Positions 12,389 to 15,313 of a stretch of DNA of 15,313 bases are shown piece after piece. Location of the stretch: assembly GCF_003334315.1 (NCBI RefSeq), contig NZ_QOWR01000076.1, one strand, 5' to 3'. Position 1 is the stretch's first letter, and every line of letters starts with the position of its first letter. The position numbers were made by a program, and so were the translations under genes. Source of the DNA: Escherichia coli (GTDB lineage: Bacteria; Pseudomonadota; Gammaproteobacteria; Enterobacterales; Enterobacteriaceae). The notes beneath the pieces are model-generated. The model was not told the DNA's origin. It searched no databases and saw only the letters and a program-made list of their open reading frames with translations.

Positions 12389-13072
12389 ATGAAACTGTTG
12401 ATTGTCGAAGATGAAAAGAAAACCGGAGAATACTTGACCAAAGGGTTAACCGAAGCCGGTTTTGTGGTCGATTTGGCCGACAACGGGCTGAATGGCTACC
12501 ATCTGGCGATGACCGGTGATTATGATCTGATAATCCTCGATATTATGCTGCCGGACGTGAACGGCTGGGATATCGTGCGCATGTTACGCTCCGCCAATAA
12601 AGGGATGCCGATTCTGTTGCTTACCGCGCTTGGCACCATTGAACATCGCGTCAAGGGGCTGGAGTTGGGGGCAGATGACTACCTGGTGAAGCCATTCGCT
12701 TTTGCTGAACTGCTGGCGCGGGTGCGCACATTACTGCGGCGCGGGGCGGCGGTGATTATCGAAAGTCAGTTTCAGGTTGCCGATTTGATGGTCGATCTCG
12801 TCAGCCGCAAAGTCACCCGCAGCGGCACGCGCATCACTTTGACCAGTAAAGAGTTTACTCTGCTGGAGTTCTTCCTTCGCCATCAGGGCGAAGTGCTGCC
12901 CCGCTCGCTTATCGCCTCGCAGGTATGGGACATGAATTTTGACAGCGATACCAATGCTATTGATGTGGCGGTGAAGCGGCTGCGCGGCAAAATCGACAAC
13001 GACTTTGAGCCGAAGCTAATTCAGACCGTGCGCGGCGTGGGTTACATGCTTGAGGTGCCGGATGGTCAGTAA
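12389..13072 (+). CDS. cusR: CusR, OmpR-family response regulator of the CusS/CusR two-component system
   Basis: 227-aa ORF, GGAGG at 12380-12384. Receiver domain with the conserved phospho-acceptor context ([17 protein letters not shown]) and a C-terminal winged-helix domain ([21 protein letters not shown]...). Matches my recollection of E. coli CusR. Confidence 0.95.
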
Positions 13073-14510
13073 GCCATTTCAGCGCCCGTTTTCGCTGGCA
13101 ACCCGCCTGACCTTTTTTATCAGCCTGGCCACCATCGCGGCGTTTTTCGCCTTTGCATGGATCATGATCCACTCAGTAAAAGTTCATTTTGCCGAGCAGG
13201 ATATTAATGATTTAAAAGAGATTAGCGCCACCCTTGAACGGGTACTAAATCACCCTGACGAAACGCAAGCCCGACGCTTAATGACGCTGGAAGATATCGT
13301 CAGTGGTTATTCCAATGTGTTGATTTCCCTGGCAGATAGTCAGGGTAAAACGGTGTATCACTCCCCCGGTGCGCCGGATATCCGCGAGTTTACGCGTGAC
13401 GCCATACCCGATAAAGACGCTCAGGGTGGCGAGGTGTATCTCCTTTCCGGCCCGACGATGATGATGCCAGGCCACGGTCACGGGCATATGGAACACAGCA
13501 ACTGGCGGATGATTAACTTGCCGGTTGGCCCGTTGGTGGACGGCAAACCGATTTATACGCTCTACATCGCGCTTTCGATCGATTTTCATCTTCATTACAT
13601 AAATGATTTGATGAATAAACTTATTATGACCGCATCGGTAATCAGCATCCTGATCGTCTTTATCGTACTGTTGGCGGTACATAAAGGTCACGCGCCGATC
13701 CGCAGCGTCAGCCGTCAAATCCAGAATATTACCTCGAAAGATCTCGACGTTCGCCTCGACCCGCAGACCGTGCCGATTGAGCTGGAACAGCTGGTACTGT
13801 CGTTCAACCATATGATCGAGCGTATTGAGGATGTCTTTACCCGCCAGTCCAATTTCTCAGCGGATATCGCTCACGAAATTCGCACGCCGATTACCAATCT
13901 CATCACGCAAACGGAAATCGCCCTCAGCCAGTCTCGCAGCCAGAAGGAGCTGGAAGATGTGCTCTACTCTAATCTCGAAGAGCTGACGCGAATGGCGAAA
14001 ATGGTCAGCGATATGCTGTTTCTCGCTCAGGCCGATAACAACCAGCTAATCCCCGAAAAGAAAATGCTCAACCTGGCGGATGAAGTCGGCAAAGTGTTCG
14101 ATTTTTTCGAGGCGTTAGCGGAAGATCGCGGCGTGGAGTTGCGATTTGTTGGCGACAAATGTCAGGTTGCGGGCGATCCGCTGATGCTGCGTCGGGCGTT
14201 AAGCAACCTGCTTTCTAATGCCCTGCGTTATACGCCACCCAGTGAGGCTATTGTAGTGCGCTGCCAGACGGTCAATCATCAGGTGCAAGTTTCCGTCGAA
14301 AACCCCGGTACGCCCATTGCGCCCGAGCACTTACCGCGATTGTTTGACCGTTTCTATCGCGTTGACCCTTCCCGCCAGCGAAAAGGCGAAGGTAGCGGCA
14401 TTGGGCTGGCGATAGTGAAATCGATTGTTGTCGCGCATAAAGGCACGGTTGCAGTAACGTCAGATGCGCGGGGGACAAGGTTTGTGATTATGCTGCCAGA
14501 GAGAGAGTGA
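13062..14510 (+). CDS. cusS: CusS, copper/silver-sensing histidine kinase
   Basis: ATG at 13062 preceded by GAGG at 13052-13055, giving a 480-aa product ([41 protein letters not shown]...). Two transmembrane helices flank a periplasmic sensor domain, followed by HAMP, an H-box ([15 protein letters not shown]) and an ATPase domain ([13 protein letters not shown]). The start overlaps the cusR stop by 11 nt. The track's TTG at 13050 was rejected. Confidence 0.95.
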
Positions 14511-15246
14511 TTATTAAGTTCAAATTCAGGGCGTGGTGCATCACCTCCTGGTATTGTTGATCAACAAATTAGAGAAAAACTTATTAAACATATGAAATAT
14601 CGAAGGCTTTTATTTTTCAAAGTTTCACGAGATGTTTGTATATGAAACTTAGTTAAATCTGTGTTTCTTCCAATTGTAGATCACAATGCCCTTTCTAAAT
14701 TTTCATCGTTATAAACAAGCCATCTATCATATAAAGCAATGAATAATTTAATCGCGATTAATCATCATTAATTGTTATATTATTCACTCAATCTATTTAT
14801 CAAGTGAATTTGATAAATTCCTAATTTAAAATATCCACTATTGAGCCAGTATTTAACAACGTTAAGATGTGCAATGTGCAGATCATGTTATCAGGGTGGA
14901 GCGGTAGCATATATTTCTTATGCAATCATTCATTTTAATAATGTTAATTGGATTATTTATTGCTGTGAATAAAAATATATTATGAATATTGGTTTAACTT
15001 TACGTTTTTGTTACTCGTTGTGATATGCGTACCTGTCCTGAATAACGCCAAGAAACAAGAGGTTGAGCTTGTGATTATTTTTTTGACTGAACAGACACCC
15101 GTTTCTGTAAAGTAATATTTAAACAAAATTCTCACATAACCATAGCATTTTCTGTTCCTTCCCTAATAACGTCTGAAGTCGTCCCGCTTATCACATTATC
15201 CGCAGTTGTACGGTACGGATCATTATTCATTTTACTGGAGGTTGCT
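14511..15246. other. AT-rich non-coding spacer between cusS and the VgrG-like gene; likely promoter / xenogeneic-silencing region
   Basis: No ORF of 60 aa or more on either strand in the track. Two 60-nt lines I counted by hand (14761-14820 and 14941-15000) are each about 20% G+C, against roughly 50% in the flanking genes. Contains interleaved short palindromes at 14782-14820. Confidence 0.6.
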
Positions 15247-15313
15247 ATGTCAACCGGATTACGTTTCACACTGGAAGTGGACGGCCTGCCGCCGGATGCT
15301 TTTGCGGTGGTTT
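15247..15313 (+). CDS. vgrG: 5' end (22 codons) of a VgrG-like type VI secretion spike protein gene, truncated by the window edge
   Basis: ATG at 15247 preceded by GGAGG at 15237-15241 with a 5-nt spacer. The translation MSTGLRFTLEVDGLPPDAFAVV fits the N-terminal pattern of VgrG/gp27-like proteins as I recall it (compare V. cholerae VgrG1, which I recall as MATLAYSIEVEGLEDETLVV...). Only 22 residues are visible, so the family call is provisional. Confidence 0.5.
   Translation, partial: MSTGLRFTLEVDGLPPDAFAVV

Follow-up and report, generated by a model that had tools for sequence, protein, structure and literature searches.

The 15,313-nt stretch analyzed here (the window) corresponds to the E. 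coli ybdK-nfsB-ybdG-pheP-cusABFC-cusRS region. The cus locus is followed by a vgrG/EagR-like/PAAR-Rhs island that is inserted between cusS and nfrB, and the features discussed below are collected in Table 1. Strain 13C1065T is 100% identical to the window over 14400-15313, and its gene order continues with vgrG, a DcrB/EagR-like gene, a PAAR-Rhs gene, an ISAs1 element and nfrB-nfrA. An earlier sequence-only reading of the cusS-vgrG spacer had reported three interleaved palindromes and an H-NS-like 10-mer upstream of a VgrG-like gene. This gene is indeed vgrG, starting at 15247 behind a GGAGG.

Table 1. Features of the cusS-vgrG spacer and its borders (window coordinates).
Feature	Position	Strand	Description
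cusS (Cu/Ag sensor kinase)	13062-14510	+	RefSeq annotation of the 100%-identical stretch, strain 13C1065T
AT-rich spacer, cusS to vgrG	14511-15246		736 bp; ~69% AT, 31% GC
Conserved upstream module	14760-14912	+	Common to three Escherichia vgrG/effector island classes: cusS, yncH-rhsE and ansP loci
Palindrome 1 (P1)	14782-14809		ATTCACT (14782-14788) and AGTGAAT (14803-14809), 14-nt loop
Palindrome 2 (P2)	14795-14818		ATTTATCAA (14795-14803) and TTGATAAAT (14810-14818), 6-nt loop
Block A, conserved asymmetric block AGTGAATTTGATAAATTCCTAATTTAAAATATCCACT	14803-14839	+	Holds every right-hand arm
Sigma-70 promoter-like pair GTGAAT-17-TAAAAT	14804-14832	+	Inside block A; own position-weight scan
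Palindrome 3 (P3)	14806-14820		GAATTT (14806-14811), GAT, AAATTC (14815-14820)
H-NS-like 10-mer TTGATAAATT	14810-14819	+	High-affinity template fit 9/10; TpA at 14814-14815
Block B, ACGTTAAGAT..GTGCAGAT..TATCAGGGTGGRGCGGTAGCRTAT	14858-14912	+	Most conserved stretch of the module: RhsE 51/55, ansP 46/55
Candidate small ORF MCRSCYQGGAVAY...	14874-14972	+	32 aa here, 15-39 aa elsewhere; weakly supported
Best-scoring sigma-70-like site of the spacer, TTGACT(15083)-19-TAAAGT(15108)	15083-15113	+	Position-weight scan; surroundings conserved with the RhsE paralog
vgrG 5' end (T6SS tip protein)	15247-15313	+	GGAGG at 15237-15241

The island between cusS and nfrB

Comparison with an empty-site strain (L007), in which cusS is directly followed by nfrB, places the left junction of the island at 14492, within the final 19 nt of cusS. 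In the same comparison the left-end sequence does not recur at the right junction in either orientation, and the island is without terminal repeats. The cusS gene measures 1449 nt in island-bearing strains versus 1443 nt, with a different C-terminal end, in the empty-site strain ZLWT. The full 914-nt query has a match in about half of the complete E. coli genomes (2697 of 5426). Based on the gene content (vgrG, eagR, rhs) we take the island to be the EHEC vgrG1-eagR-rhsF island, known as S-loop 44. The nfrB/cusS site is rhs locus 4 in Jackson 2009 (PMC2935791), and the setting itself was already known, rhs locus 4 being EHEC S-loop 44, a laboratory-silent island.

The cusS-nfrB site is a hotspot for different islands. 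Strain KK19-02 (L006, 3112-6112) carries another island at this position, encoding an HNH/EndoVII toxin, two WD40-like proteins and a PAAR-like protein. In strain 2EC1 (L009, 2555-3700) an IS1 is inserted at window position ~14775 and a deletion reaches envY. Further upstream, an IS903B separates nfsB from ybdG in strain 13C1065T (L001, 1597-2565); it is absent from the window (~2330-2420), which therefore derives from another strain.

The spacer shows no enrichment of promoter-like sites. The best-scoring one, TTGACT-19-TAAAGT, is a possible vgrG promoter, which would then lie ~135 nt upstream of the start codon. Two elements described for the K-12 paralog of the spacer have diverged in the window: an 8-bp deletion at ~15000-15010 (region ~14994-15014) interrupts the predicted promoter TTGACT-17-TATTAC (Shimada 2014), and the PhoB ChIP site CATGACATTTTTCTGATA (Fitzgerald 2023) reads CATAGCATTTTCTGTTCC at ~15141-15158.

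Palindromes and the H-NS-like 10-mer against chance expectation

All three overlapping inverted repeats of the sequence-only reading are present at their coordinates. The second one, first noted as TTTATCAA / TTGATAAA, is longer than stated and extends to 9+9 nt. Their frequency was judged against dinucleotide-preserving shuffles of 14511-15247 (737 bp, the spacer plus one base; 31% GC), counting perfect inverted repeats with an arm of at least 6 nt and a loop of at most 25 nt. At least three such repeats inside 45 bp were reached by 18% of 1000 shuffles and at least one repeat with a 9-nt arm by 15%, while a summed arm length of at least 22 was reached by 5.6%, which is borderline.

The 10-mer TTGATAAATT differs, as reported, by one base from the H-NS motif TCGATAAATT and is the sole such site in the whole window. 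It fits the degenerate template tCG(t/a)TA(a/t)ATT at 9/10, equal to the proV sites themselves. Since experimentally defined H-NS sites fit the template of Lang 2007 at only 5.5-9/10 (PMC2094087), the H-NS motif is a loose one. A site within one mismatch of the strict 10-mer occurred in 19% of 2000 shuffles and a 9/10 fit to the Lang template in 51%; in the window itself another 9/10 template site lies at 14772, and the spacer (69% AT) contains three sites within two mismatches of the 10-mer. Both the palindromes and the 10-mer are at chance level for the AT-rich composition.

These frequencies speak against the reading in which TTGATAAATT is a genuine high-affinity nucleation site, from which H-NS would spread along the spacer to silence the vgrG promoter. 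Its match to the Lang template is as good as that of the proV sites, the surrounding AT-rich DNA offers more sites within two mismatches, and the corresponding spacer of the K-12 paralog is H-NS-bound; yet a match of this quality is a common chance event by either measure, and the site at 14772 fits the template equally well. The 10-mer is also retained at 8-9/10 in all Escherichia alleles and classes, reading TTAATAAATT at the RhsE locus, TTGATATATT at ansP and TTAATATATT in the ansP-locus strain CI5, but in the aligned sequences this conservation cannot be separated from that of block A as a whole. As the published H-NS data moreover resolve the spacer only as a whole, and in a paralog, we regard a dedicated nucleation site at this position as unlikely.

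Conservation across alleles and paralogous islands

Paralogs of the spacer from ~14760 onward were found by BLAST against complete E. coli genomes. The yncH-vgrG-rhsE paralog is ~82% identical as far as vgrG, its K-12 copy being the yncH-rhsE spacer, and an ansP-linked paralog is ~73% identical over 14758-14908 only. At the ansP locus the module is followed downstream by genes for a small putative effector and a T6SS immunity-like lipoprotein and by a vgrG. At the cusS locus itself, diverged alleles exist of the O157 type (94%) and in strain 31B22 (82%). From block B on, the cusS-locus allele of 31B22CPO057 (L012, 2767-3510) is closer to the RhsE paralog than the window allele is, a pattern that suggests recombination or gene conversion between the cusS and RhsE loci. 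The flanks 5' of ~14760 are unrelated between the island classes, and the 39-bp palindrome stretch sits just inside this 5' edge of the module. In an exact-pattern scan with TATCAGGGTGGNGCGGTAGC across 100,044 species genomes, one per species, matches were confined to E. whittamii, Escherichia sp. E1V33 and Superficieibacter electus, so the module is nearly confined to Escherichia; the copies in E. whittamii and Escherichia sp. E1V33 belong to the ansP class.

Nine distinct sequences from the cusS, yncH-rhsE (including K-12) and ansP loci were compared for the pairing of the palindromes. P1 declines from 7/7 pairs in the window to 6/7 in both the O157 and 31B22 alleles, 4/7 at the RhsE loci and 4-5/7 at the ansP loci. 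For P2 the corresponding values are 9/9 (window), 8/9 (O157), 9/9 (31B22), 6/9 (RhsE) and 6-7/9 (ansP), and for P3 they are 6/6 throughout except at the ansP loci (5/6). Conservation of the palindromes among homologous upstream regions, the test set by the sequence-only reading, therefore holds for P3 (5-6/6) and fails for P1 (4-6/7) and for P2, which is reduced to 6-8/9 in seven of the eight other sequences and complete only in 31B22. Even the O157 allele, about 94-100% identical across the module, has degraded P1 and P2, with three changes in the 21-nt left-arm stretch. No compensatory substitutions in P1-P3 are present across the nine sequences. In a search with a 66-nt query, 2239 records were at least 99% identical, 479 were of the O157 type and 1067 had the RhsE paralog only; this high identity within the species reflects low divergence rather than demonstrated constraint.

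The two sides of the palindromes diverge at different rates. The left arms (14782-14802) match the window at 15/21 positions in RhsE, 14/21 in ansP and 18/21 in O157, and the right arms (14803-14820) at 16/18, 17/18 and 18/18, respectively. Identity to the paralogs thus amounts to 89-94% for the right arms versus 67-71% for the left arms, from which it follows that the conserved entity is the asymmetric block AGTGAATTTRATAWATTCC, continuing to ~14839, and not the symmetry. Since the left arms belong to a stretch of low conservation and fast divergence and the right arms to the conserved asymmetric block GTGAATTTRATAWATTCC, the dyad symmetry is incidental in the window strain. A dyad serving as operator of a dimeric transcription factor is not maintained across the homologous regions, save for P3.

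Block A could in principle serve as operator or activator site of a regulator with sequence specificity that is encoded elsewhere and controls several vgrG islands together, for instance by counter-silencing, with either GAATTT-N3-AAATTC or the asymmetric GTGAATTTRATAWATTCC as the recognized sequence. The conservation of P3 (5-6/6) and block A (89-94%) in three island classes that occupy different loci points in this direction, as does the overlap of block A with the promoter-like pair GTGAAT-17-TAAAAT. The geometry of this pair differs between the island classes, however: it is kept at GTGAAT(14804) and TAAAAT(14827) in the cusS-locus alleles, its -10 element is degraded at the RhsE loci, and in the ansP alleles it is shifted by a few bases to TTGATA-18-TACATT. 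In Superficieibacter block B alone is kept, and block A is unrecognizable. None of 11 consensus motifs scanned (Fur, ArgR, CRP, IHF, Fis, RcsAB, GAD box, PhoP, Lrp, the H-NS template and sigma-54) scored above shuffle expectation, and the island lacks a regulator gene, encoding VgrG, a DcrB/EagR-like protein, PAAR-Rhs and IS only. The earlier proposal of a binding site for a dedicated regulator finds no footing in these results, the island having no such gene and the spacer none of the scanned consensus motifs above chance, and a regulator encoded elsewhere seems improbable to us as well.

Block B (~55 bp) is nearly invariant upstream of the three island classes and relatively G+C-rich amid AT-rich DNA. 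Further copies lie at ~1527560-1527615 of K-12 (NC_000913.3) and at ~3855-3915 of L013 (minus strand), and block B is recognizable in S. electus with an 8-nt insertion. The candidate small ORF running through it translates in full in the window as MCRSCYQGGAVAYISYAIIHFNNVNWIIYCCE, and its first 13-14 residues, with the N-terminal pattern M-x4-YQGGAVA(Y/F), are common to most alleles and S. electus. It was set aside as a weakly supported gene candidate. Its length and C-terminus vary, E. whittamii has no ATG, and S. electus conserves GTGCAGAT in another frame. When 5.8 billion proteins were searched with a profile, six matches resulted, all of them unnamed hypothetical proteins, and the two with a named source are from Escherichia. 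Substitutions in the YQGGAVAY core fall on third codon positions in 4/6 cases (hand count; binomial p ~0.1). Just 5' of the candidate start, at 14867-14880, a tandem ATGTGCA ATGTGCA has arisen from a 1-nt insertion (GATGTGCAATG versus GATG-GCAATG elsewhere) and is limited to the window and O157 alleles. Folding of block B with RNAalifold (10 sequences) gave -5.45 kcal/mol with 0 compensatory pairs. The sequence GGAGCGGTAG presumably resembles the 5' end of tRNA-Asp; ARAGORN detected no tRNA or tRNA remnant in the module.

The whole module may be pictured as a dedicated cis-regulatory cassette moving along with the T6SS accessory (vgrG/effector) islands of Escherichia, with a promoter in block A and block B as the conserved leader, possibly encoding the short peptide M-x4-YQGGAVA(Y/F). 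We give this picture only a slim chance. If true, the leader might account for the post-transcriptional block reported for EHEC vgrG1-rhsF.

The weakest alternative, in which the repeats form a DNA cruciform, an RNA hairpin or a pseudoknot (loop GTGAAT pairing with ATTCAC further upstream) with a role in transcription or in the control of mRNA, can appeal to a 9-bp stem with a 6-nt loop complementary to the upstream hexamer and to a minus-strand RNA fold of -9.8 kcal/mol (z = -2.7), but is largely refuted because the pairing is not conserved: pairs are broken without compensation in the paralogs and O157, and no covariation is seen. In addition, the stems are nearly all A-T, single-strand folds of 14775-14830 are weak overall (-5.2 to -9.8 kcal/mol, z -1.75 to -2.7; plus strand -5 to -6 kcal/mol, z ~-1.8 to -2.0), and an Rfam scan of 14450-15313 at E<=10 gave chance-level matches only, none near gathering score.

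Probable H-NS silencing of the spacer and comparison with known systems

Published work on related DNA bears on the spacer as a region. The paralogous yncH-rhsE spacer of K-12 contains an H-NS site according to genomic SELEX and is also bound by RpoD holoenzyme (Shimada 2014, PMC3946193). The K-12 spacer moreover belongs to an H-NS ChIP-seq region: Fitzgerald 2023 (PMC10294691), citing Kahramanoglou 2011, marks the PhoB ChIP peak at 1527862, upstream of rhsE, as falling inside one. The EHEC T6SS is under H-NS repression, and the start site upstream of S-loop 44 (rhsF) is inactive in EHEC Sakai (Zammit 2025, PMC7618764). A promoter swap at EHEC vgrG1 yielded neither VgrG1 nor RhsF, and the authors suggest post-transcriptional repression (PMC13141884). 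The H-NS binding of the K-12 paralog, together with the inactive start site of the EHEC island, makes regional silencing plausible. These H-NS data come at whole-spacer resolution from an 82%-identical paralog, and the 39-bp palindrome stretch lies below their resolution. The original suggestion of H-NS silencing of an acquired island promoter is thus reasonable for the region, given its ~69% AT and the published data, whereas the specific role it suggested for the palindromes and the 10-mer is not supported, both being at chance level.

We therefore favor, with moderate confidence, an account in which the palindrome stretch is not a discrete palindromic element but part of an ordinary AT-rich upstream region, silenced in the manner of H-NS, that precedes an acquired T6SS effector island. 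By analogy with the related loci, the spacer 14511-15246 is probably H-NS-coated and silenced. H-NS would polymerize over the whole spacer through many degenerate AT-rich sites, TTGATAAATT being one good, unexceptional site among several, and this coating would keep the vgrG-eagR-rhs operon off in laboratory conditions. Should block A be specific, it would more likely act as a promoter element or an asymmetric protein contact than as a hairpin or a symmetric operator. The nucleation site, the regulator site using P3 or block A and the hairpin or cruciform all rank below this H-NS-region account, and the last is essentially excluded. Some observations run against the account. The retention of block A and TTGATAAATT in all Escherichia classes would be compatible with a specific site, P3, kept at 5-6/6, could possibly represent a small symmetric operator, and both the summed-arm statistic (5.6%, borderline) and the z of -2.7 for the minus-strand RNA fold stand out.

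As it stands, the finding matters little: interleaved short palindromes and near-consensus H-NS 10-mers are the chance expectation in AT-rich island DNA. The shared module, block B above all, is an only mildly interesting by-product. Blocks A and B, and not the palindromes, provide a concrete starting point for switching on orphan E. coli vgrG-rhs islands.

The H-NS nucleation sites of proU/proV (Bouffartigues 2007; Lang 2007, tCGATAAATT) are the first known system for comparison. Like those sites, TTGATAAATT is a 10-bp AT-rich element with a central TpA and a 9/10 template fit, situated within AT-rich DNA upstream of a horizontally acquired operon. Unlike them, it has a T for the C of the CG step, and a match as good as this one is expected by chance here (19-51% of shuffles). 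The T6SS regions of EHEC, with a bidirectional promoter and the h3R region between hcp3 and vgrG3, likewise have long AT-rich non-coding DNA upstream of a vgrG gene silent in vitro. The vgrG1-eagR-rhsF island (S-loop 44) of EHEC is unexpressed even after the promoter swap. No DNA homology to h3R was found: the window module matches no more than three places per genome, and all those examined are at cusS or ansP/yncH. The elements reported for h3R (a terminator and predicted Fis, MalT and NarP sites) went undetected in the window spacer. In the case of the K-12 yncH-rhsE spacer, P1 and P2 are missing (4/7 and 6/9 pairs) and the 10-mer reads TTAATAAATT. The homology of the K-12 and BH212 paralogs stops where vgrG is deleted, and it reaches the vgrG start in strains that keep vgrG. 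This K-12 spacer is a true paralog of the window spacer, 82% identical from ~14765, and has block A, block B and P3.
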